In this document: positions 6,294-54,459 of the stretch, piece after piece
Layout of the letters: every line of letters starts with the position of its first letter
Position numbering within the stretch: position 1 is the stretch's first letter
Assembly (NCBI GenBank): GCA_965207695.1
Contig: CBDBNA010000011.1
Location: forward strand, 4,193 to 68,192
DNA from: Dehalococcoidia bacterium
Lineage (GTDB): Bacteria; Chloroflexota; Dehalococcoidia; Bin125
DNA: 64,000 nt
Direction: 5' to 3'
Notes under the pieces: model-generated
What the model was told of the DNA's origin: nothing
Database searches by the model: none
Seen by the model: only the letters and a program-made list of their open reading frames with translations
Position numbers and translations under genes: made by a program

Positions 6294-6982
6294 CCGCCCC
6301 GCGCCGCCCCGCGTCCCCGCTGCGCGTCCGTGATCTGGGCCGGCTCGCCTACCCGCCCGCCCTCGCCGAGCAGCGGGCCGCGCACGCCGCCGTCGTGGCC
6401 GGCGACGAGCGCGCCCTGCTGCTCCTCGTCGAGCACGACCCCGTCGTCACGCTGGGACGCCGCGGCTTGCGCGACGGTGTGCGCGCGCCGGAACGGCTGC
6501 GAAGGCTTGGCATCCCCATCGTCGAGAGTGAGCGCGGCGGCGACGTCACCTACCACGGCCCCGGCCAGCTCGTCGCCTACCCCGTCCTGCGGCTGAGCGA
6601 CTTCCGGCTCGACGTGCGGGCCTACGTCGGCGCGCTCGAAGGGGCCGCGCTGCGCCTGCTGGCCTCCTACGGGCTCGAAGGCCGCCGCGACCCCGAGATG
6701 CACGGGGTGTTCACCGTCGGCGGCAAGATCGCCTCGGTGGGCGTGCACGTCTCGCGCGGGGTCACGCGGCACGGCATCGCGGTCAACGTCGACCCCAGCG
6801 CCGAGCACTGGGCCTGCATCGACCCCTGCGGTCAGGCCGATGTCCGGGCGGCCTCCCTGCGCGCCGAACTCGCGGCCGCGGATGCCGCCACGGTCGCCGC
6901 CTGCGCCATGCCGGTCGTCAAGCGCCGCTTCGTCGCGGCCTTCGCCGCCGAGTTCGGCGTCGCGGTGTCCGCGTCTCGTTAG
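6290..6982 (+). CDS. lipB: Lipoyl(octanoyl) transferase
   Basis: RGGDVTYHGPGQLVAYPV motif and a conserved C-terminal Cys region. ATGA overlap with the upstream NUDIX gene. Confidence 0.85.
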   Translation: MTAPRRPASPLRVRDLGRLAYPPALAEQRAAHAAVVAGDERALLLLVEHDPVVTLGRRGLRDGVRAPERLRRLGIPIVESERGGDVTYHGPGQLVAYPVLRLSDFRLDVRAYVGALEGAALRLLASYGLEGRRDPEMHGVFTVGGKIASVGVHVSRGVTRHGIAVNVDPSAEHWACIDPCGQADVRAASLRAELAAADAATVAACAMPVVKRRFVAAFAAEFGVAVSASR

Positions 6983-6997
6983 CAGTCGCCGCCGCCC

Positions 6998-7429
6998 CTA
7001 CTCCTCCGCCCACAGGTCGATCCGCGAGAGGCAGTGCACGCACATCCGCAGGACGTCCGATCCGCGCTCGCCCTGGTGCAGCGCCGCGACCAGCGTGTCC
7101 TGCAAGTGCGCGAAACAGTAGCGCGGCCCGCAGCGCTCGCAGTGGGCGTCGTGCGCGGCGTCGCAGTCGGGCATGCCGCAGCGGCCGTCGGCGTTGCGCG
7201 CTCGGGCGGCGCGCAGAAAGGCGTGGTGCTGTTCGAGGTCGGCCTTCTTGGCCTGGCAGGCGGCGCGGTGGCAGACCTCCTCGCGGTCGCCGAAGCGGTC
7301 GCCGTGGTCCGCGCAGAAGCCGCGGGCACAGTACTGACACTGGCCGGCCAGCGGCTTCCGGCAGCCCAGGCCGAAGACGCGTCGTTCGCATCGCCGCGCC
7401 CGCTTGTACTCCCGCATCATCGCGACCAC
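6998..7429 (-). CDS. Cys/His-rich putative metal-binding protein
   Basis: About 21 Cys/His arranged in CxxC/CxxH-like pairs. The overlapping plus-strand ORF is an Ala/Arg/Val low-complexity artifact. Confidence 0.45.
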   Translation of the reverse strand: MVAMMREYKRARRCERRVFGLGCRKPLAGQCQYCARGFCADHGDRFGDREEVCHRAACQAKKADLEQHHAFLRAARARNADGRCGMPDCDAAHDAHCERCGPRYCFAHLQDTLVAALHQGERGSDVLRMCVHCLSRIDLWAEE

Positions 7430-32729: not shown

Positions 32730-33488
32730 ATGGCTCGCACCACTCGCCTGAAGCGACGGCTGGTCCGGCGCCCCGACCCCGCGGCGTCCCGTCGGACGAC
32801 GCTGCCCTGGCGGCGGCGCTACCGGCTGCTGGTACAACTCGGCGCGCTGGCCAGCCTGGCCGTGGTGCTGGTGGCCGTAGTGCTGCTGTTCCCCCGCACT
32901 GACGACGGCCCCACCGCGCGCGAGGAGCGGGCGCTAGCGGAACTGTCCCTCGCGCGGTCGATCGATGTCGCGCCGGCCGACTTGCCCGCCGACTGGGGCC
33001 CGACGGGCCTGGGCTTCGGCCTCTGGGTCAACCTGCGCCGCAGCAACCTCGGCGCCGCCACCGCCTTCGCCGACTCCCCCTCGGGTGGCGGCCAGGGCTG
33101 GGCCTCCAGCGACCCCGCCGCGCGCATCGACATCAGCACGGGCATCATCATCGGCGATGACGAGGCCCAGGCCGCCGCCGCCCTCGCGCGCCTGCGGGAG
33201 GCCACCCCCGCCGAAACCGCCGCCTACGTCGAGCCCACCCACCACCAGGTGCTCGGTATGACCGTGCTCCCCACCGACGACGCGCGTACCTTCGCCTTCG
33301 CCCTCGAATTCCGCCGCAACACCGTCGAGAGCCGCATGACCGTCTACTGGCGGCAGGTGGGCCGCTCGCTCATCTTCGCCGCCCAGATCAGCGCCCGCGC
33401 CGCCGGGCCCATCCCCTGGCAGCCCGACCTGCCCTCCAGGCTCGACGACATCACCGCCTCCGTCGAGGCGGCCTCGGCCGGGCCCTAG
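32730..33488 (+). CDS. Membrane-anchored hypothetical protein (N-terminal TM helix, extracytoplasmic domain)
   Basis: Basic N-terminus followed by a TM helix (LVQLGALASLAVVLVAVVLLF). Protein-like composition. Confidence 0.5.
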   Translation: MARTTRLKRRLVRRPDPAASRRTTLPWRRRYRLLVQLGALASLAVVLVAVVLLFPRTDDGPTAREERALAELSLARSIDVAPADLPADWGPTGLGFGLWVNLRRSNLGAATAFADSPSGGGQGWASSDPAARIDISTGIIIGDDEAQAAAALARLREATPAETAAYVEPTHHQVLGMTVLPTDDARTFAFALEFRRNTVESRMTVYWRQVGRSLIFAAQISARAAGPIPWQPDLPSRLDDITASVEAASAGP

Positions 33489-35077
33489 GGCAGCGGCACG
33501 ACCAGGTCCGTGTCCGCCGAGGTGACCACCCAGAAGGCGTCGCCGCGGACGATGGCGATGTCGGCGCGCAGCCGCGGCGGCAAGCCGGGGCTGTCGAGGC
33601 GCCAGCCGTTGACCTGATCCCAGACCCAGATCCGGACGATCGCCGGGTTGCCGTCGATGATCGCGCGGGAACTGCTGGGCGTGCCGAACCAGCCGACCAG
33701 CGAGAAGCCGGCCGGCAGCGGGACCAGCGCCTGGTTCAGGTGGTCGTTGTCGGTGATGGTGACGTCGAGCGTGACGACGCCCAGCCCCGCGCCGGTGGCG
33801 ATGTGGTGGATGTGGTGGACGTGCTCGCCCTCGTCGCGGTCGTCATCGATCGCCTCGACCAGCACGGTCCGCGGCTGCGCCCAGTCGCGCGGCTGGAACA
33901 CGATCCGGATCGGGCTGACGCGCAGGTCGTCCTCGGCCTGGATGGAGACGGTGACGGGGACGGACGGACGCCGGCGCAGCGCGACGGTGTAGGTGTCGTG
34001 GCCGCCGTCCTCGGCGACGGCCGTGCCGCCGCCGGACTCCGTGATGTGCACCGCGGGCGAATGATCGTCGGCGATGGGGATGGGGACTTCGACCGCGGGG
34101 GCGCTGCGCGGCCCGGTCTTGAGCGTGAAGGTGAGGACGCCGGTGTGATCGCCTTCGGGATCGTCGTCATCGACCGCGAAGACGGCGAACTCGACCAGGC
34201 TGTTCCAGTTGGAGGCGTCGAAGCGGAACTCCGAGCTGGAGACGGTGAGCTCGTCGTCCGGCGTGACGGTCACGGTCGCATCGCCGCCGGGGTTCGCGCT
34301 CAGACGCAGGGAGACGAAGTCGGGGCGGCCCCCCTCGATCAACTCCGTGCTGCCGCCGGAGTGCGTGACGATGATGGTGAAACTGTCGTCGCCGATGATG
34401 GTGACGGACAGCGGGTGGTTGCCGGAGCCGGTGTAGCCGCCCCCCGTCGCGGCATGGGTGATGACGATGTCGCGGGTGCCGGCGCGGCGCGGATCGTCGC
34501 GGGCCCTCAGCGTGACCCGTTTGGGCGTGGCGTAGTCGGCGGCGGAGAAGCGCAGCGTGTGGGGCGAGATCTCGATGTGCTCGGCGCCGGAGATCGCGAT
34601 CGTCACGGGGCCGGTGGGGCGCATGCTCAGCGCGACGGTGTAGACGCCCGAGGTGCCGCGCTCGGTGAGGCGGAGGCCGGCAACCCCCCCGAACGTCAGG
34701 CTGGGCACGACGTAGGTGAAGGCGCCCACGCCGGCGCCGGCGCTGACGCCGTCGGGGCTGGTGACGACGACGTCGATGAGGCCGGCCCGCGAGACGGTCG
34801 GCACGGTGGCTTCGATCGCCCGGTCGTTGCGGACGCTGAACTCGGCCCGGCGTCCCTCGAAGGTGACGGCGGTCGCGGCGGTGAAGTGCTCCCCGGTGAT
34901 GGTGACGACGGTTCCCGCGAGGCCCGTGTCGGGCGTGACGCCGGTGACGACGGGCGGCCCGACGGCCCCGACGGCGGCGGGCGAGAGCGCCGCGCCGGCC
35001 AAAACGGCGCCGATCAGGAGCAGCAGGGCACGCCAAGGCATCGATCGGATCGCTTTCCCGCCGACCCGGCGACGCAT
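33485..35077 (-). CDS. Secreted IPT/TIG-domain protein with Ig-like repeats and one copy of the recurrent C-terminal domain
   Basis: Signal peptide, an IPT/TIG-like N-terminal domain (PVVTGVTPDTGLAGTVVTITGEHF), and a GFSLVGWFG...WVWD...GDAFWVV C-terminal module. The start could be M1 or M13. Confidence 0.75.
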   Translation of the reverse strand: MRRRVGGKAIRSMPWRALLLLIGAVLAGAALSPAAVGAVGPPVVTGVTPDTGLAGTVVTITGEHFTAATAVTFEGRRAEFSVRNDRAIEATVPTVSRAGLIDVVVTSPDGVSAGAGVGAFTYVVPSLTFGGVAGLRLTERGTSGVYTVALSMRPTGPVTIAISGAEHIEISPHTLRFSAADYATPKRVTLRARDDPRRAGTRDIVITHAATGGGYTGSGNHPLSVTIIGDDSFTIIVTHSGGSTELIEGGRPDFVSLRLSANPGGDATVTVTPDDELTVSSSEFRFDASNWNSLVEFAVFAVDDDDPEGDHTGVLTFTLKTGPRSAPAVEVPIPIADDHSPAVHITESGGGTAVAEDGGHDTYTVALRRRPSVPVTVSIQAEDDLRVSPIRIVFQPRDWAQPRTVLVEAIDDDRDEGEHVHHIHHIATGAGLGVVTLDVTITDNDHLNQALVPLPAGFSLVGWFGTPSSSRAIIDGNPAIVRIWVWDQVNGWRLDSPGLPPRLRADIAIVRGDAFWVVTSADTDLVVPLP

Positions 35078-35184
35078 GATCGCTCCGTCCGTCTCATTCT
35101 AGAGCCTGTTCACAACCGCGCCAGGCATCGCGGATGAGGGCGAAGCCGGGCCGCTGGGGGGGTCATGGGCCTCGAAATGCAAGG

Positions 35185-35485
35185 AGTTTTTTTTCTGCGG
35201 GGCGCCCGGCGAGAGGCTGCGAGGAGAAAACCGCCATGTTCATTGGCGATCTTGCTCGGTCACGCTGGAGCATCGGCGGTCATGGGCGTGCACTGGCGTG
35301 CACCGGCGCGCATTTGGGAGCATTGGGGAGCACGAACCTGCACGCACTTTCACGCACTTTCACGTTCTTTCACGTTCTTTCACGGGCTCAGGCGAGTCCG
35401 CGGGGGGCGCGCCGGGCCGGTGTCAGAACACGCGATATGCGTTCCATGAACGCAATATAGTGGATGGCACCAGGGAAGGCAAGCC
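35185..35485. repeat. Right copy of the inverted promoter-plus-leader module (IR-B)
   Basis: Reverse complement matches IR-A. It carries CTTTCACG-type tandem repeats x4-5 at 35337-35394 and a T8 run at 35187-35194. The promoter TTGCCT-17-TATATT is on the minus strand at about 35454-35482. Confidence 0.8.
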
Positions 35486-35578
35486 CTCGCCCATGGCGAC
35501 GCGGCGGAGCCGCCGGTCGGGTAGACTAGTGTGGCTCACCCGGGCGCCCGGTCACCGGACGAAGTAAGGCAGGACGGC

Positions 35579-36292
35579 ATGGTCACCGCCGCCAAGATCG
35601 ACCCCAAGTCGCCCGTCTTCGCGCCGCGGTACTCGTACGCGGAAGCGGAGCGCCTGGCCGGCGTCTCCCGCGGGACCGCGAAGCGGTGGCTGAGGGGCTA
35701 CCACCACCGCGGGCCGGATGGCGAGCCGCGGTTCCGTGCGCCCGTGATCCCCGGGGAACGACTGGACGATGCGGATGGGTACGTCTCGTTCGCTGATCTC
35801 GTGGAAATCGCGGCGCTCAAGCGCTGGCGAGACCTGCGATGGCCCCCTCCCACGATCCGGAAGGTCGCCGAAGGATGCCGGCAGATCTTCGGAGTCGACC
35901 GGCCGCTGATCACGGAGCGCTTCCAGCGGGAGGCCCCAGGCGTCTTCGCGGACGCGATCGCCCATTTCGCCGATCTGTCCCCCCGGCAGCGCAAGCAGGC
36001 GTGGGAGACGATGCGGGCCTTTGTGGACACCCTGGACTACGAGGGCGATTTCGTTTCGGCTTGGTGGCCCCGTGGCAGGGATGTTCCGGTCGCCATCGAT
36101 CCCGACTACGGATTCGGGCTGCCGGTGGTGGTGTGCTCGGGGCTGCGCACGCTCCTGCGCACCGAGATCGTGCTGGAGCAGTTCCGCGCCGGCGAGACGG
36201 CGGCGGCGATCGCGGCGGACTACCGCCTTCCCGTGCGATCGATCACCGCGGCGATCGATTTCGAGGCGTCACTGTCTCCCGAGCCCGCATGA
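35579..36292 (+). CDS. DUF433-domain protein with an N-terminal HTH extension (antitoxin-like)
   Basis: C-terminal DUF433 signature (LRTEIVLEQFRAGETAAAIAADYRLPVRSITAAIDFEA) and an N-terminal HTH (YAEAERLAGVSRGTAKRWL). Confidence 0.65.
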   Translation: MVTAAKIDPKSPVFAPRYSYAEAERLAGVSRGTAKRWLRGYHHRGPDGEPRFRAPVIPGERLDDADGYVSFADLVEIAALKRWRDLRWPPPTIRKVAEGCRQIFGVDRPLITERFQREAPGVFADAIAHFADLSPRQRKQAWETMRAFVDTLDYEGDFVSAWWPRGRDVPVAIDPDYGFGLPVVVCSGLRTLLRTEIVLEQFRAGETAAAIAADYRLPVRSITAAIDFEASLSPEPA

Positions 36293-36681
36293 TCCTGATC
36301 GACGCGTCGGTCGCGCAGCGCGTCGCGCGGGAACTCGGCGAGGCTCGCGGCGACGTGCTGTCGGGCGCCGACATCTACCCGAGCGGCACCGAGGACACGA
36401 TCTGGCTCATGGAGGCCGGCGTCAACGGCTGGCTCGTGATCACACGGGACAAGAGGATCGTCAGGCGGCCGGCCGAGCGGCAAGCGATCCGGGATCACGC
36501 CGTCGGGGCGTTCATCATCGCGCAGAAGCGGGATCCGACGGCCGCGGAGTACCGGCGTATCATCTCCGCCACCCTCGCGAAGATGGAGGCCCTCTTCGAG
36601 AGCACGCCGCGTCCGTTCGTCTTCCGGATCGACTCGGAGTTGCAGTTCCGCCAGGTCCTCGCTGCGGAATCACCCTCGTAG
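36289..36681 (+). CDS. DUF5615 (Mut7-C / PIN-like) protein (toxin-like partner of DUF433)
   Basis: MILIDASV...GTEDTIWLMEAGVNGWLVITRDKRI pattern. ATGA overlap with the upstream DUF433 gene. Confidence 0.65.
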   Translation: MILIDASVAQRVARELGEARGDVLSGADIYPSGTEDTIWLMEAGVNGWLVITRDKRIVRRPAERQAIRDHAVGAFIIAQKRDPTAAEYRRIISATLAKMEALFESTPRPFVFRIDSELQFRQVLAAESPS

Positions 36682-36702
36682 CCCTCGGCCCTGCCCCCTG
36701 AC

Positions 36703-36761
36703 GCCGCCGCCGCGTCCCCCCTCTCCATCGTCCAGATGGAGAGGGGGACAGGGGGTGAGGT
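36703..36761. repeat. 57-bp hairpin repeat, copy 1 (CCCCCTCTCCATC-GTCCA-GATGGAGAGGGGG followed by ACAGGGGGTGAGGT)
   Basis: 13-bp perfect stem with a 5-nt loop. Three copies occur within 720 bp. Confidence 0.85.
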
Positions 36762-36777
36762 TTGGGGCGGCGCCGCG

Positions 36778-37032
36778 CTACAGGCGCGTCAGCAGGGCGA
36801 CGATGGCGGCGACGATCCCGGCGAACACCACGGACTGAATCACCATCCCCCGGTAGAGCTGGGCGCGCCATTCCTTGGTGTCGGCGCGAAGCTGCGCCCG
36901 GAACGCCGCGCGCTCCGCCCGAAGCTGCGCCCGGAACTTCGCGGACTCCGCCCGGAACGCCGCGAACTCCGCGCGCAGGATCTCCTGCGTCACCAGCGGG
37001 CTGGACGCGTCCCCCACCGTCACGATCGGCAC
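36778..37032 (-). CDS. XhlA-like small membrane-anchored coiled-coil protein (84 aa)
   Basis: N-terminal repeats AEFAAFRAESAKFRAQLRAERAAFRAQLRA followed by a C-terminal TM helix VVFAGIVAAIVALL. Confidence 0.5.
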   Translation of the reverse strand: MPIVTVGDASSPLVTQEILRAEFAAFRAESAKFRAQLRAERAAFRAQLRADTKEWRAQLYRGMVIQSVVFAGIVAAIVALLTRL

Positions 37033-37067
37033 TCCTTCGACTTCCCCCGGGCGGGCAGCCTAGCATC

Positions 37068-37124
37068 CCGCCGCCACGTCCCCCCTCTCCATCGTCCAGA
37101 TGGAGAGGGGGACAGGGGGTGAGG
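37068..37124. repeat. 57-bp hairpin repeat, copy 2
   Basis: Stem and loop identical to copy 1. It lies between the two divergent small genes. Confidence 0.85.
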
Positions 37125-37176
37125 TCCGGTCCCCGCTCCTGTATGATGGCCCCACAAGCGACCCGGAGGCGCACCC

Positions 37177-37365
37177 ATGGCCCAAGACGCGATCAGCCGA
37201 GCGGAACTCGACGCGGATCAAGCCCGCCAGGAAGTCTCGTTCACCGAGGCGATCTATCAGATGCGCGTCGACCTGCGGGCCGAGATGCACCAACTCGAAC
37301 GCCGCATCTACCTCGTGGTGGCGCTGGCGACGGGGCTCATCATCGGCGCGATGCAGATCAGCTAG
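37177..37365 (+). CDS. XhlA-like small membrane-anchored coiled-coil protein (62 aa)
   Basis: N-terminal helix followed by a C-terminal TM helix (YLVVALATGLIIGAM). Same architecture as its divergent neighbour. Confidence 0.45.
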   Translation: MAQDAISRAELDADQARQEVSFTEAIYQMRVDLRAEMHQLERRIYLVVALATGLIIGAMQIS

Positions 37366-37422
37366 CCGCCTCCACGTCCCCCCTCTCCATCCCCGATGGA
37401 GAGGGGGCCAGGGGGTGAGGTT
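37366..37422. repeat. 57-bp hairpin repeat, copy 3 (same stem, loop changed to CCCCG)
   Basis: Stem conserved and loop variant, followed by CCAGGGGGTGAGGT. Confidence 0.8.
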
Positions 37423-37788
37423 CCGGCCCCCCGACGTTTTACCCCCCGACCGTTGATTCCCCGGCGACCGCCCGCGACCCTCGACCCCATGGCCCCGCGA
37501 CGGCCGCCCGAGCGGCGTAAAACTCTAGTAAACCCCCCGAAAAGTGCGTCCGGTGCATTGCCCGCCTGCTCGGGGGGAGCCTATCTTTGCTGGGAATCAT
37601 CCCTGGGGCCCGTGTGAGGGCCCCCGCTGGGCGCGTGCCGCGTCCGCAACGCCCACGGTGAGGACCACCGCGGGCGACGACCAGGAAGGAGCTTGCTGCG
37701 ACAGCTCAACAGGAAACGGACCATGCCGGCCGCCAACGGCCGGGCTCTCACAACAAAGGGGAGAACAGCTTTGACTAAGCAAGGAATC

Positions 37789-39678
37789 ATGGAGAGAGGA
37801 CTGGGGCGGCGGGCCCTGATGCTGGTCGTCCTGGCGGCGGTCGTCGCCCTGGGCGCCTTCCTCGTCGTGCGGCCGGCCGAGGCCGCTGACATCCCGCTGG
37901 CCGCTGACACTAATTCGGTGTCCGCGGCGCCGGGCGACACGGTCCAGATCGCGGTGCTCGGCGCGCTCGCGCAGGTCAGCATCACCGGCACGGGCGACGG
38001 CGTCAGCGCGAGCTTCGCCGCCAACGACGGTCAGTCGATCTCGTGCGCCGACAACACGTCGTGCGACGAGAACGACACCGCCAACGAAATCCAGATCGAC
38101 CTGAATGTCGCCGATGACTCCGCCGAGGGGTACATCCTGCTGAGCGTCGCGGGCGTCGCCGGGACCACCCCGACGGCCCAGGTCACCAAGGTTATCACTG
38201 TCTCCAAGGCGACGCAGTTGGGTTCGCTCGACGTCGCGACGAGCAGCAAGACGATCGCGGCGAACGACGACAACACCACCGCGGACGACGGCGGCCCGAA
38301 CGAGGCGGACATCCTGGCGACGGTCAAGAACGCTTCGTCGCCGGCGGGTGGACTCAACGGCCAGCAGGTGACCTTCATCACCACGCTCGGCACCCTGGCC
38401 TGTCCTGGGTCTTCGGACGCGAACGGTGCCAACACCATTGCGGCGGTGTCTGGGGTGCAGGTCTGCTCGGTCTGGACCACGAACCAGGACAACCCGCTCA
38501 CTGCTGACACCGACGCCGCTGACGGCTTCGCCACAGTCAGGCTGGACGGCGCGAAGCGCGAGGGCGTGGCCACCGTCACGGTCACCACGGGCGGCCTCAC
38601 CGAGCAGCTCGAGGTGACGATGTACGGCACGGCCAAGAACCTGACGGCCGAGCCGCAGCAGGGCTCCATCGAGATCGGCGGCGAAGTGTACGTCGTGCTG
38701 ACCGTCACCGACGACGCCGGCAACCCCGTCGCGGGCCAGGTGGTCGCACCTGTCACGTCGCCGGATAAGGAAGTGGAAGGTCCCACTGACGACGCCGTGC
38801 TCGTCGTGGCCACGAAGGACACGCCGGCGGCGGACTCGACCACCGACAGCGTGGGCGTGGGGTACAGCAAGGACTTCATCCACGCGACGGACGCGTCGCA
38901 GAACCTCCCGGCGTGTGGTAACGACGCTGTCGGCGACTTGGCGGGCCCGTCCACCGAGGTGTTCGCCACCGACGGCACCAACGCCGACGGCAAGTGCGTC
39001 GTCCACGTGACGGCTCCGGACGAGGACGGAACCGATGACGACGCGACGCGCGGCGCGCACACGCTCAACTTCGCGATCGGCACGATCAAGGCTTCGGCCA
39101 CGATCGACGTCGCCGGTTCGCCGAACAGCATCACGACGGATGCTCCGGCGTCGGTTGACCCGGCCAGCGTGACCAAGATCACGGTCTCGGTGTGGGACGA
39201 CACGAACGTGCTCGTCGGCATTACCGAGGTCAAGGTCCGCAAGGTCGACGGCGGCGGTCTGATCGAGGACCAGGGCGACGGCGGCTCAGAGATGACCGTC
39301 GACGGCCAGTCCGCGTTCACCTTCATTGCCCCGTCCGGCGCGGGCACGGCGGAGATCCTGATCACCGCCGGCGATGTCAGCCAGCGCGTGATGCTCACCA
39401 TCGGCGAGCCGGAGGACACCGGCCCGACCGTGATCGAACTGACGGACGGCCCGGCCTCGACGTACGTCGCCTGGAGTGACGACTGGGGCACGGTGTCCTC
39501 GTCGACCTTCGAGAACGTCGCGGGTCTGGTGGTCGTTTGGAAGTGGACCGGCACCATGTGGATCGGCTACACCTCCAGCCCGACCGCTCCGGCCGCGACC
39601 AAGACCAACTTCACCGTGGGCCCCGCCGATGTTCTCTACGTCATCGCCAACGGGGCGGTGACGATCACGATCTACTAG
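37789..39678 (+). CDS. Large secreted Thr/Asp/Ala-rich cell-surface protein with Ig-like (Big-type) repeats and one copy of the recurrent C-terminal domain
   Basis: Signal peptide (LMLVVLAAVVALGAFLVVRPAEA), repeated beta-rich modules (VTVTDDAGNPVAGQVV), and the C-terminal VAWSDDWG...WKW...ADVLYVI module. ATG at 37789. Confidence 0.75.
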   Translation: MERGLGRRALMLVVLAAVVALGAFLVVRPAEAADIPLAADTNSVSAAPGDTVQIAVLGALAQVSITGTGDGVSASFAANDGQSISCADNTSCDENDTANEIQIDLNVADDSAEGYILLSVAGVAGTTPTAQVTKVITVSKATQLGSLDVATSSKTIAANDDNTTADDGGPNEADILATVKNASSPAGGLNGQQVTFITTLGTLACPGSSDANGANTIAAVSGVQVCSVWTTNQDNPLTADTDAADGFATVRLDGAKREGVATVTVTTGGLTEQLEVTMYGTAKNLTAEPQQGSIEIGGEVYVVLTVTDDAGNPVAGQVVAPVTSPDKEVEGPTDDAVLVVATKDTPAADSTTDSVGVGYSKDFIHATDASQNLPACGNDAVGDLAGPSTEVFATDGTNADGKCVVHVTAPDEDGTDDDATRGAHTLNFAIGTIKASATIDVAGSPNSITTDAPASVDPASVTKITVSVWDDTNVLVGITEVKVRKVDGGGLIEDQGDGGSEMTVDGQSAFTFIAPSGAGTAEILITAGDVSQRVMLTIGEPEDTGPTVIELTDGPASTYVAWSDDWGTVSSSTFENVAGLVVVWKWTGTMWIGYTSSPTAPAATKTNFTVGPADVLYVIANGAVTITIY

Positions 39679-39693
39679 GCGAACGGAGCCTCA

Positions 39694-39723
39694 GCGGGGC
39701 GCCTCACCAGGGGGCGCCCCGCT
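39694..39723 (+). terminator. GC-rich hairpin (AGCGGGGCGCC-loop-GGCGCCCCGCT) downstream of the surface-protein gene
   Basis: An 11-bp perfect inverted repeat 16 nt after the stop codon, with no U-tract. Confidence 0.4.
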
Positions 39724-39756
39724 CCTCATCAGGAAGCATCGGAAAGGAAGCCCCAC

Positions 39757-40383
39757 ATGATGAAAGCAAGCTCGAAGTGGCGCTGGCTGGCGGTGATGAG
39801 CGCGGCGGCGTTCGCGCTCGCCATCGCGGCCAGTGCCTTCGCGCAGGCGCCGCCGGCGCCGCCGCACCAGTTCTACGGCAGCGGCGCGACGCTCGACGGC
39901 GAAACGTCCGACGGCACCGTCACGGCGACCAACCAGGACGGCGAGGCCGTCGGTTCGTCCTCGATCGACATGGGCGCATGGGCCATCAACGTCGACGCGG
40001 CCGACGCGGACAGCGTCACGTTCAGCATCGACGGGTCGGACCCGAGTGACTCGTACGATGTCGAGGGTGCCGGCGTGACCGAGGTCAGCCTCGCTCTCAC
40101 GTCCCCCATGGCCGACGAAGACGACATGGGTGACACCGAGGACGACATGCCCGGCGACGACGCCGAAGACATGCCCGGTGACGACATGGGCGACGACATG
40201 CCCGGCGACGACGCCGAAGACATGCCCGCCGACGACATGGGCGACATGCCGGACGGCCTGCCCGACACCGGTAGCGGTGGTCTGGCCGGCGGCAGCAGCC
40301 TGCCCGCCCTCCCGCTGGCTCTCGCGATCAGCATCGCGGTGGCCCTGGGTGGCGTGCTGGCAGTGCGTCGCATCCGCGCCTAA
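39757..40383 (+). CDS. LPXTG-anchored secreted protein with Asp/Met-rich DDMPGDD repeats
   Basis: Signal peptide, then (DDMPGDD / AEDMPGDD) x about 6, then the LPDTG sorting motif, a hydrophobic segment and an RRIRA tail. Confidence 0.8.
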   Translation: MMKASSKWRWLAVMSAAAFALAIAASAFAQAPPAPPHQFYGSGATLDGETSDGTVTATNQDGEAVGSSSIDMGAWAINVDAADADSVTFSIDGSDPSDSYDVEGAGVTEVSLALTSPMADEDDMGDTEDDMPGDDAEDMPGDDMGDDMPGDDAEDMPADDMGDMPDGLPDTGSGGLAGGSSLPALPLALAISIAVALGGVLAVRRIRA

Positions 40384-45596: not shown

Positions 45597-45674
45597 GGTG
45601 GGCGTCGCCTAGAGGCCTAAGGCGCCAGGTTGTGGCCCTGGTATTCGCGGGTTCGAATCCCGCCGTCCACCCCA
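45597..45674 (+). tRNA. tRNA-His (GTG)
   Basis: Cloverleaf, read from 45597: G-1 paired to C73, acceptor GTGGGCG/CGTCCAC with one G-U pair, anticodon stem CCAGG/CCTGG, loop TTGTGGC, T-arm GCGGG-TTCGAAT-CCCGC, and an encoded CCA. Confidence 0.85.
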
Positions 45675-46340: not shown

Positions 46341-46417
46341 GCGCCCGTAGCTCAGTGGAACAGAGCATCAGACTTCGGATCTGAGGGTCGGGGGTTCGAG
46401 TCCCTCCGGGCGCGCCA
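46341..46417 (+). tRNA. tRNA-Arg (TCG)
   Basis: Acceptor GCGCCCG/CGGGCGC, D-arm GCTC-AGTGGAACA-GAGC, anticodon stem TCAGA/TCTGA with loop CTTCGGA, T-arm GGGGG-TTCGAGT-CCCTC, discriminator G, and an encoded CCA. Confidence 0.85.
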
Positions 46418-53031: not shown

Positions 53032-54459
53032 GTGGCCACTCCCGCCGACACTCCGACCGACGCCGCGCCCCGTCCGACGACGCTGGGGGCGCTGCGCGCC
53101 AGTGGCTACCGCCCGCGTCCGCTGCGCGCCGAGATGCGGGAGAACCTCGTGGCGCGGTTGCGAGCGGGCGCGCCGCTCTTCCCGGGCATCCAGGGCTACG
53201 ACGAGACCGTGCTGCCGGCGTTGCAGAACGCGATCCTGGCCGGGCAGGACATGATCCTGCTGGGCGAGCGCGGGCAGGCGAAGAGCCGCATCATCCGCGC
53301 GCTGGTCTCGCTGCTCGACGACTGGGCGCCGGTGCTCGACGGCCCCGAGATCCCCGAGAACCCCTTCGCCCCGATCTCCGAGCAGGGGCAGCGCCTGGTC
53401 GCGGAGCAGGGGGATGAGGCCCCCATCCGCTGGCTGGCGGCCGAGGAACGCTACGGCGAGAAGCTGGCCACGCCCGACATCACGATCGCCGACCTGATCG
53501 GCGAGGTGGACCCGATCAAGGTCGCGGAGGGGCGCTATCTCTCCGACGCGCTCACGATCCACTTCGGGCTGGTGCCGCGCACCAACCGCGGCATCTTCTG
53601 CATCAACGAACTGCCGGACCTCGCGGAGCGCATCCAGGTGGGGCTGCTGAACATCATGGAGGAGCGCGACGTACAGATCCGCGGCTTCCGGGTGCGGCTG
53701 CCGTTGGACATCCTGATCGTCGCCAGCGCGAATCCGGAGGACTACACCAACCGCGGGCGCATCATCACGCCGCTCAAGGACCGCTATGGCGCGCAGATTC
53801 GCACCCATTACCCGGAATTAGTGGAGACCGAGATCGCGATCATGCGCCAGGAGGTCGCGCCGATCTCGGTCGAAGGACTGCGCGTCGACGTGCCTGCCTA
53901 CATGGAGGAGGTCGTCGCCGAGGTGACGCGGCTGGCGCGGCGCAGCCCCGACATCAGCCAGCGCTCGGGCGTGTCGGTGCGGGCGTCCATCGCGGCGATG
54001 GAGACGCTGGTCGCGAACGCCGTGCGGCGCGCGATCGCGCTCGAGGAATCGCACGTCGTGCCGCGGGTTAGCGACCTGCCGCACGTGCTGCCCGCGATCC
54101 AGGGCAAAATGGAGATGGAGACGGTCGACGACGACAAGGACGCGCAGGTCTTGGAGAAGATGCTGCAAGGTGGCGTCGCCGCCGTGTTCAACCGCCGCTT
54201 CAACGTCGTGGATCTCGAGGAGGTCGTGACGGTGTTCAAGACGGGCACGTCGGTGGAGGTGGGCGAGGCCGTCCCCGCGGCCGACTACCCGGCCCTGCTG
54301 ACGTCGGTGGAAGGCCTCCGCGAGGCCTTGCAGCCCATGCAGGTCGGCGAAGACCCGGCCGACCTCGCGGCCGCCGTGGAGTTCGTCCTCGAGGGGTTGC
54401 ACCTGAACAAGCGCCTCAACAAGGACCAAGTGGGCGCGCGGATCCAGTATCGGGGCTGA
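53032..54459 (+). CDS. ChlI/BchI-like AAA+ ATPase (Mg-chelatase subunit I family)
   Basis: Walker A GERGQAKS, sensor region FCINELPDL, and ChlI-like ILIVASANPEDYTNRGRIITPLKDRYG. Confidence 0.8.
   Translation: MATPADTPTDAAPRPTTLGALRASGYRPRPLRAEMRENLVARLRAGAPLFPGIQGYDETVLPALQNAILAGQDMILLGERGQAKSRIIRALVSLLDDWAPVLDGPEIPENPFAPISEQGQRLVAEQGDEAPIRWLAAEERYGEKLATPDITIADLIGEVDPIKVAEGRYLSDALTIHFGLVPRTNRGIFCINELPDLAERIQVGLLNIMEERDVQIRGFRVRLPLDILIVASANPEDYTNRGRIITPLKDRYGAQIRTHYPELVETEIAIMRQEVAPISVEGLRVDVPAYMEEVVAEVTRLARRSPDISQRSGVSVRASIAAMETLVANAVRRAIALEESHVVPRVSDLPHVLPAIQGKMEMETVDDDKDAQVLEKMLQGGVAAVFNRRFNVVDLEEVVTVFKTGTSVEVGEAVPAADYPALLTSVEGLREALQPMQVGEDPADLAAAVEFVLEGLHLNKRLNKDQVGARIQYRG

Follow-up and report, generated by a model that had tools for sequence, protein, structure and literature searches.

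We found that a 64,000-nt stretch of a Dehalococcoidia genome (contig CBDBNA010000011.1 of assembly GCA_965207695.1, positions 4,193 to 68,192; hereafter the window) contains exactly three copies of a repeat unit of approximately 60 nt, all on the + strand, and that these copies belong to a new family of the repetitive extragenic palindrome (REP) type or of the type of MITEs (miniature transposable elements with inverted repeats). The family is multi-copy, almost always extragenic, and gained or lost between related genomes. A first-pass annotation of the window had suggested a small MITE- or REP-like family, and this was borne out by dispersal in many genomes, compensated stem pairing and presence/absence polymorphism. 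Our preferred reading, which we consider probable, is that the three units (HP1, HP2 and HP3) are singlets of a selfish repeat of the REP/REPIN-MITE type (REPINs are REP doublets that form hairpins), that they are probably stable 3' hairpins once transcribed, and that they have no specific tie to the two small genes among which they lie.

Each unit consists of a C-rich arm (also written CCGCCNCCAC), a 13-bp stem-loop and a tail, AGGGGGTGAGGT, in that order. The stem arms, CCCCCTCTCCATC and GATGGAGAGGGGG, are identical and perfectly paired in all three copies, as the first-pass annotation had described. Immediately 5' of the stem is CCGCC(G/T)CC(G/A)CGTC, and immediately 3' is (A/C)CAGGGGGTGAGGT. 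HP1 (36703..36763, + strand) has the arm CCGCCGCCGCGTC, a stem at 36717-36729/36735-36747, the loop GTCCA and the tail ACAGGGGGTGAGGT. It is located between the convergent stops of a PIN_10 gene and a minus-strand gene of 84 amino acids (aa), beginning 21 nt past the first stop and ending 14 nt short of the second. HP2 (37067..37127, + strand; stem 37081-37093/37099-37111, loop GTCCA) is between the divergent starts of the 84-aa gene and a 62-aa gene, upstream of both. HP3 (37365..37423, + strand) has its stem at 37379-37391/37395-37407 and the tail CCAGGGGGTGAGGT; its first base doubles as the final base of the 62-aa stop codon. The placement of the copies relative to the two small genes was as first described. 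The loop of HP3 had been given as CCCCG and is in fact CCC, 3 nt.

Several searches agreed on these three copies. A covariance model built on 65 family members placed them at 36703-36763 (73.4 bits), 37067-37127 (74.6 bits) and 37365-37423 (71.3 bits), and the runner-up in the window scored 15 bits. A repeat finder gave a unit of ~58 nt at 36704-36761, 37068-37125 and 37364-37421. A pattern search of the 64 kb that allowed up to three mismatches found no additional copy, and none of the shuffled controls (0/100) had any match. A weak covariance-model match at 53362-53422 was rejected as a fourth copy; it is inside a coding sequence. RNA folding of 81-nt segments gave -53.3, -44.0 and -41.4 kcal/mol for HP1, HP2 and HP3 (z = -4.4, -3.4 and -2.3, respectively). 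As had been pointed out before, ATGGAGAGGGGG in the hairpin seeds spurious open reading frames (ORFs), and we found these (MERGTGGEV... and MERGPGGEV...) in the ORF list. A unit that both seeds ORFs of the form MERGxGGEV... and marks rearrangement junctions can confuse annotation and the assembly of metagenome-assembled genomes (MAGs).

We found that the stem varies in a compensated manner. With a tolerance of two substitutions in each arm, the sampled sequences yielded 196 copies. Fully compensated variants were the commonest: ...CCATT/AATGG... (19 copies), ...CCAGC/GCTGG... (14), ...CCACC/GGTGG... (3) and CTCCC.../...GGGAG (2). In an alignment of 65 sequences, 97.9% of the cells of the 13-bp helix were paired, and seven pairs changed on both sides. 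For example, pair 26-36 was UA in 41 sequences, GC in 13, CG in 6 and AU in 2, and pair 27-35 was CG in 50 and UA in 13. The observed pairing values were reached by none of 500 shuffles (0/500) and by no slid register. Because the copy search did not require complementarity, this compensation supports selection for the hairpin structure, as the first-pass annotation had proposed.

The family is widely dispersed. We scanned 8-kb tiles of public species-representative genomes for the exact hairpin with a loop of 3-6 nt; sampled loci that were compared with the window carry L-numbers (e.g., L065, L114). The exact hairpin was present in more than 112 tiles, which is a lower bound, mostly from high-GC (~0.71) MAGs of Dehalococcoidia/Chloroflexota. 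Other hairpin-bearing MAGs were labelled Chloroflexia, Anaerolineae, Thermoanaerobaculia/Acidobacteriota (three), Margulisiibacteriota and Saganbacteria (three), and the GC content of hairpin-bearing genomes ranged from 0.48 to 0.72. The closest complete chromosome, OZ244557.1 (Dehalococcoidia), is collinear with the window at 83-90% identity and has at least 25 copies in at least 17 tiles. The tail nnAGGGGGTGAGG flanked the hairpin on one side in all groups, and in AT-rich genomes the element stood out as CCTCACCCCC-hairpin-(~20 nt)-GGGGGTGAGG. A core of 45 nt, made up of the hairpin (CCCCCTCTCCATC/GATGGAGAGGGGG) and AGGGGGTGAGG, was identical at every base in Chloroflexota, Thermoanaerobaculia/Acidobacteriota, Margulisiibacteriota and Saganbacteria. 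No pattern of replication-strand bias was seen among the matches listed, and a scan of viral contigs for the hairpin gave no match. An Rfam scan of the window found only two tRNAs at the gathering score; at E<=10 it added chance matches to miRNA hairpins, far below threshold. Our literature search, which covered the literal motifs and repeats of Chloroflexi/Dehalococcoidia, found no description of the family.

The non-Chloroflexota groups carry their own subfamily flanks, with the exception of two loci. The flanks of the hairpin in L098, labelled Vicinamibacterales, match Dehalococcoidia loci at 79-92% nucleotide identity, and L098 is therefore probably a mis-binned Dehalococcoidia contig. L111, labelled Gammaproteobacteria, has a hairpin and tail of the Dehalococcoidia type and likewise looks like mis-binned Dehalococcoidia sequence.

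Neighboring copies have a preferred arrangement. We found 22 adjacent pairs with tails outward and none with tails inward, at spacings of 9-137 nt and commonly ~37 nt. These doublets have the pattern ACCTCACCCCC-nn-hairpin, spacer, hairpin-nn-GGGGGTGAGGT. Their consensus in the closest relatives is, in order, ACCTCACCCCCTGT, a hairpin, a spacer of ~37 nt ending in ...CGCCTCCACGTT, a second hairpin, and ACAGGGGGTGAGGTTC. Palindromy extends a few bases beyond the ends of the doublet, and the inverted ends of Thermoanaerobaculia doublets reach ~40 nt. The inverted doublet may be the complete element. The window copies are direct-oriented singlets, not doublets; in alignment each one corresponds to the doublet's right half, from the end of the spacer through the hairpin to the tail.

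Other arrangements occur as well. Five copies form a head-to-tail array in L011 (6847-7126, Chloroflexia MAG) with a period of ~82-86 nt, and five form another in L063 (5908-6644, Dehalococcoidia MAG) with a period of 178 nt; L115 also carries a head-to-tail array of the unit. Often beside the 13-bp type is another hairpin with a shorter stem-loop, CCCCTCTCCC-TGGG-GAGAGGG, after which comes TTAGGGTGAGGG (e.g., L031 at ~515-560 and L049 at 6945-7030). It has the same stem-plus-tail design, and there is no copy of it in the window.

Comparison with related loci, some of them located through homologues of the small proteins, indicates that units come and go between related lineages, at positions that coincide with the module junctions of a hypervariable islet. 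The islet, which includes an HTH/DUF433 gene (helix-turn-helix), the PIN_10 gene and the two small genes, is syntenic with L065, L113, L114 and L115, with modules in a different order. In L114 and L115 the two small genes are both present and, as in the window, divergent; no hairpin separates them, and none follows the 91-aa gene that corresponds to the 84-aa gene. Equivalents of HP1 and HP2, absent from L114 and L115, are present at the same positions in L120. In L120 these hairpins occur together with an intact 91-aa gene, which makes the 5' truncation of the window's 84-aa gene a separate event. L120 is without the 62-aa gene; of the HP3 unit it retains just the tail and the flank, beside its HP2 unit. 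In L065, a VapBC pair and one hairpin replace the two small genes, and the TIG-domain gene is at another position. An element of ~100 nt in L114 is absent from L115, where the flanks are 96% identical. Copies have thus been gained or lost at two of the three window sites (HP1 and HP2), and at the third (HP3) a relative keeps the tail alone.

These comparisons bear on the earlier suggestion that the element captured, or regulates, the small genes. Most copies of the family are beside unrelated genes, and relatives have the gene pair with no hairpin between the genes. In L116-L119 the 62-aa gene is 85% identical, in an unrelated context and without hairpins; the window sequence to either side of HP2 aligns to the region upstream of this gene in L116, and HP2 itself is absent. 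On this evidence the hairpins are not specifically tied, in function, to the two small membrane proteins; the suggested link is withdrawn.

Immediately after HP3, at 37427-37456, is a direct repeat, CCCCCCGACGTTTTA/CCCCCCGACCGTTGA. At ~2840-2870 of L120, the same flank as after HP3 (GGGGGGTAAAACGTCGGGG, other strand) adjoins a tail remnant that has no hairpin.

We found that the copies are extragenic and that one gene family is over-represented beside them. For these statistics, genes in the high-GC loci were called by a simple method based on GC content at third codon positions (GC3). Approximately 91% of copies (165/182) were outside called genes. Tandem, convergent and divergent gene pairs around copies numbered 80/29/28, matching the background of 351/107/97. 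The largest protein cluster near copies was that of SBP_bac_5-like substrate-binding proteins (SBPs) of ABC transporters (35 loci), with permeases next. SBP_bac_5-like genes made up 27/113 of the genes whose 3' end faced a hairpin, compared to a share of 5.8% among called genes as a whole (binomial p 2e-10). From the SBP stop codon to the first hairpin the distance was usually 19-46 nt, and the order SBP-hairpin-permease was found in 12 cases. This was the sole gene family over-represented; most copies adjoin unrelated genes.

REP hairpins in the malE-malF and hisJ-hisQ intervals of enterobacteria reportedly protect the upstream message (Higgins and co-workers, 1980s). The position after an SBP gene and before permeases is the same in our family, and by analogy it would fit a barrier to 3'-5' decay that raises SBP expression. 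The sequences are unrelated to those of the enterobacterial repeats, and none of the three window copies belongs to an ABC operon.

In other respects, too, the family is similar to the REPs and REPINs of Proteobacteria, which are mobilized by REP-associated tyrosine transposases (RAYTs). Both are short GC-rich extragenic palindromes in many copies, with inverted doublets able to form one longer hairpin and singlets that resemble half-doublets (PMC3337134, PMC3116915). Our clusters and tandem arrays are comparable to bacterial interspersed mosaic elements (BIMEs), and a site after the binding-protein gene of an ABC operon is frequent in both. Unlike REPs, the family has a perfect 13-bp stem, a conserved G-rich tail of 11 nt, no GTAG tag and no RAYT found in the sampled loci. 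The tetranucleotide just ahead of the stem reads CGTC in all three window copies (3/3) and CGTT, GGTC or GGTT in most relatives. In this tetranucleotide the family resembles the CGTC-tagged REPs (Di Nocera et al. 2013, PMC3733652), which also have no dedicated transposase associated with them. CGTC-tagged REPs differ in having stems of 8-9 bp that start with A/T pairs, loops of 4-5 nt and a CCA tail, and the groups in which they were reported (Proteobacteria, Chlorobi, Bacteroidetes, Spirochaetes and Thermotogae) do not include Chloroflexi (PMC3733652). Bacterial MITEs (Correia/NEMIS of Neisseria, and ERIC) share with the family a non-autonomous size, terminal inverted repeats (in our family seen in the doublets) and an expected co-transcription with neighboring genes; for our family we found neither a clear target-site duplication at the sites compared nor, in the loci sampled, a parent insertion sequence (IS) sharing its ends. 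REP families are normally lineage-specific (PMC3733652, PMC3337134), whereas the core described above is identical across phyla. This identity is not explained by an ordinary REP or MITE.

Some observations weigh against the view that these are mobile selfish repeats with an RNA-level effect. Four comparisons of sites with and without an element, at 80-96% identity, gave no clear target-site duplication. Part of the C-rich left arm (CCGCCGCC) is also present at HP2 sites that have no hairpin, and the boundaries of the element are uncertain to that extent; the arm at these sites could reflect a target preference, insertion guided by homology, or imprecise loss. Orientation relative to upstream genes was mixed overall (48 vs 45 for non-SBP genes and 23 vs 7 for SBP genes). 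With IS608 TnpA and E. coli RAYT sequences as tblastn queries, there was no Y1/RAYT match below E=1.9 in 917,562 bases of sampled loci. Among the 150 ORFs nearest to copies, Pfam identified no recurrent transposase or Y1_Tnp family and just two ORFs with DDE_Tnp_1. The sample was gathered by exact stem match, and conservation of the stem sequence (the near-invariance of the lower stem) is in part built in. The RNA-level role is suggested by the SBP association, through analogy with classical REPs.

Other searches for a mobilizing enzyme were likewise negative. RAYTs are single-copy. Clustering of the ORFs of all loci gave ABC-transporter families and no transposase cluster, and the ORFs between distant tails-outward pairs encoded OsmC or unknowns. 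No parent IS with the same ends as the repeat was found in these searches. L071 (3625-4808, OZ244557.1) has an IS of ~1.2 kb, with an IS5-like transposase gene (DDE_Tnp_1 + DUF772), inside a cluster of hairpin repeats; it was the one transposase gene with a hairpin on each side. We rejected it as the parent: because the orthologous locus L049 has the cluster without the IS, the IS is an insertion into the cluster and is not bounded by it. Its location suggests that this IS may target palindromic repeats.

Our preferred reading, of selfish REP-type singlets, can be put as a series of steps. Copies would spread as selfish DNA, either through an enzyme acting in trans or through recombination or template switching at short C-rich homologies. 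A hairpin that falls inside a transcription unit could then form a barrier at the RNA 3' end, as an mRNA stabilizer or as a partial stop to transcription or decay, by analogy with the enterobacterial cases. For the window this would mean that the PIN_10, 84-aa and 62-aa transcripts are capped at their 3' ends by HP1 and HP3, and that HP2 is an insertion in the shared upstream region. The hairpins mark the module junctions of the toxin-antitoxin and small-gene islet, and they may promote its rearrangement. There is an outside chance that the core is recognized by a conserved partner, either an undescribed cross-phylum mobilizing enzyme or the anti-Shine-Dalgarno end of the ribosome. If the former is true, the family would join the GTAG and CGTC superfamilies of REPs as a third; if the latter, the element would be a mobile mRNA-stabilizer module made of a hairpin and a Shine-Dalgarno-like tail.

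To our knowledge, REP-type repeats have been studied almost entirely in Proteobacteria. The present family is a well-defined REP-type example in uncultured high-GC Dehalococcoidia, with REPIN-like doublets that lack a known transposase and with the classical association with ABC binding-protein genes. A core common to several phyla is unusual for such elements and could point to a mobilizer or to an RNA-level partner.

We considered four other explanations. The units might be transcription terminators, possibly bidirectional as in the first-pass annotation, that are selected in place for the flanking genes. HP1 is between convergent stops, HP3 starts on a stop codon, the hairpins fold very stably, and family copies are often 19-46 nt past stop codons. 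On the other hand, there is no T/U run on either side of the hairpins (the flanks are ACAGGGGGTGAGG and, on the other strand, GACGTGG), and a terminator scan was empty at all units. The mix of gene-pair arrangements around copies is that of the background, with no enrichment for convergent genes. HP2 is upstream of both of its genes, and many copies are inside operons, between SBP and permease genes. We therefore regard terminators as unlikely.

A second explanation is that the unit is a functional RNA module, in which the hairpin and a Shine-Dalgarno-like tail (AGGGGGUGA) bind the 30S subunit or another conserved factor. This would explain the identity across phyla, in which the core is the same in genomes of 48%-72% GC labelled as four phyla. 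By eye, and with the known anti-Shine-Dalgarno sequence, the tail AGGGGGUGA can form eight contiguous pairs with the 3' end of 16S rRNA, one of them G.U. Against it, a plausible start codon is within 15 nt of the tail in only about 5/186 copies, and we rejected the idea of a Shine-Dalgarno donor for this reason. Also, copies face either way with respect to genes, pairing of the tail with its complement is predicted for doublets, and there is no Rfam match. We give an RNA module a low probability.

Alternatively, the units could be attC-like or other recombination sites that delimit mobile cassettes in an integron-like array. They are imperfect palindromes of ~60 nt in the same orientation around single small genes (in the window, around the AF2212 gene of L114 and around the 91-aa gene of L120), toxin-antitoxin-rich module content varies between relatives, and the 62-aa gene is missing between two units in L120. 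However, GTTRRRY/RYYYAAC cores are absent from the units, and the perfect stem leaves no extrahelical bases. No integrase or recombinase was found among the scanned neighbors (TIG, HTH/DUF433, PIN_10 and unknowns). Across the chromosome most copies are solitary or inverted doublets beside housekeeping or ABC-transporter genes. In addition, the homology with L116 at the 62-aa gene spans the HP2 site, which places HP2 inside a shared segment and not at its edge. Cassette sites are very unlikely.

Finally, the palindrome could serve as the operator through which a local DNA-binding protein (the adjacent HTH/DUF433 product, for example) controls the two small genes. It is perfect, adjoins an HTH gene and has one copy in a divergent promoter region. 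Against this, more than 190 sampled copies have no DUF433 neighbor, all four types of base pair occur at the positions next to the loop, and in relatives the two genes are found with no hairpin between. The first-pass annotation had suggested a protein-binding palindrome; dispersal across phyla makes one that binds a local factor unlikely, and we consider the operator reading extremely improbable.

The two small genes are context and not part of the repeat element. Both look real: their codon-position GC is gene-like, with GC3 of 0.95 for the 84-aa gene (36778..37032, - strand) and 0.85 for the 62-aa gene (37177..37365, + strand), and there are 6 homologues of the 84-aa protein and 13 of the 62-aa protein. 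Each encodes a coiled coil and a single C-terminal hydrophobic segment (a transmembrane helix), the architecture that the first-pass annotation had reported. The internal triplicated repeat that it noted in one protein is also real; it is a 33-nt tandem repeat (x3) at 36892-36978 of the 84-aa gene, and the number of such AEFRAE-type repeats differs among members of the family.

Family assignments changed. Neither protein matched XhlA (PF10779) or DUF883 at E<=1, and neither did their family members (10 and 11, respectively) at E<=0.1, so the description as XhlA-like was dropped. In contrast, 8/10 homologues or paralogues of the 84-aa protein matched PF07798 (CCDC90-like/DUF1640; best E 3.5e-9). 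The window copy itself had no match, and one homologue scored 29.8 bits, below the cut-off of 33.5. Full-length members of this family are 91-113 aa and begin with MAMTFDTRRAAQKLTEAGV..., and the window copy and the relative P0002 are without the first ~27 residues. From these comparisons, the 84-aa gene appears to be a 5'-truncated member of the DUF1640/CCDC90-like family. The 62-aa family has conserved ends (MAQDAISRAELDADQARQE...ATGLIIGAMQ) and a central coiled coil of variable length; the 62-aa protein and 11 family members matched no Pfam family. The first-pass annotation had treated the two genes as a duplication. Profile-profile comparison (hhalign) of the two families gave a probability of 3.5%; they are not detectably related and, at the level of sequence profiles, do not appear to be paralogues. 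For the window, then, our results remove the suggested link between hairpins and membrane proteins and correct the family assignment of the small proteins.

The neighboring genes in the islet are the HTH/DUF433 gene (35531-36292, + strand) and the PIN_10 gene (36289-36681, + strand), identified with Pfam, which form a toxin-antitoxin-like pair (35531..36681). The islet is located between a conserved 252-aa gene and a gene for a 661-aa Ig-like surface protein, and this interval is hypervariable (32730-40383, compared to L065, L113, L114, L115 and L120). Across relatives, the two small genes and the DUF433/PIN_10, VapBC and AF2212-like modules may be in place, missing or in another order, and the position of the TIG-domain gene varies among them. 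A short tandem repeat (cacgcactttcacgcactttcacgttctttcacgttctttcacggg) is found at 35320-35400, in an AT-richer gap of ~450 nt from the start of the TIG-domain gene to the HTH/DUF433 gene. The leader and start region of the 661-aa gene (37593-37774) is conserved with L065 (73%, 190 nt) despite differing upstream sequence, and this conserved leader may be regulatory. The window also contains genes for tRNA-His (GTG; 45598-45674) and tRNA-Arg (TCG; 46341-46417).

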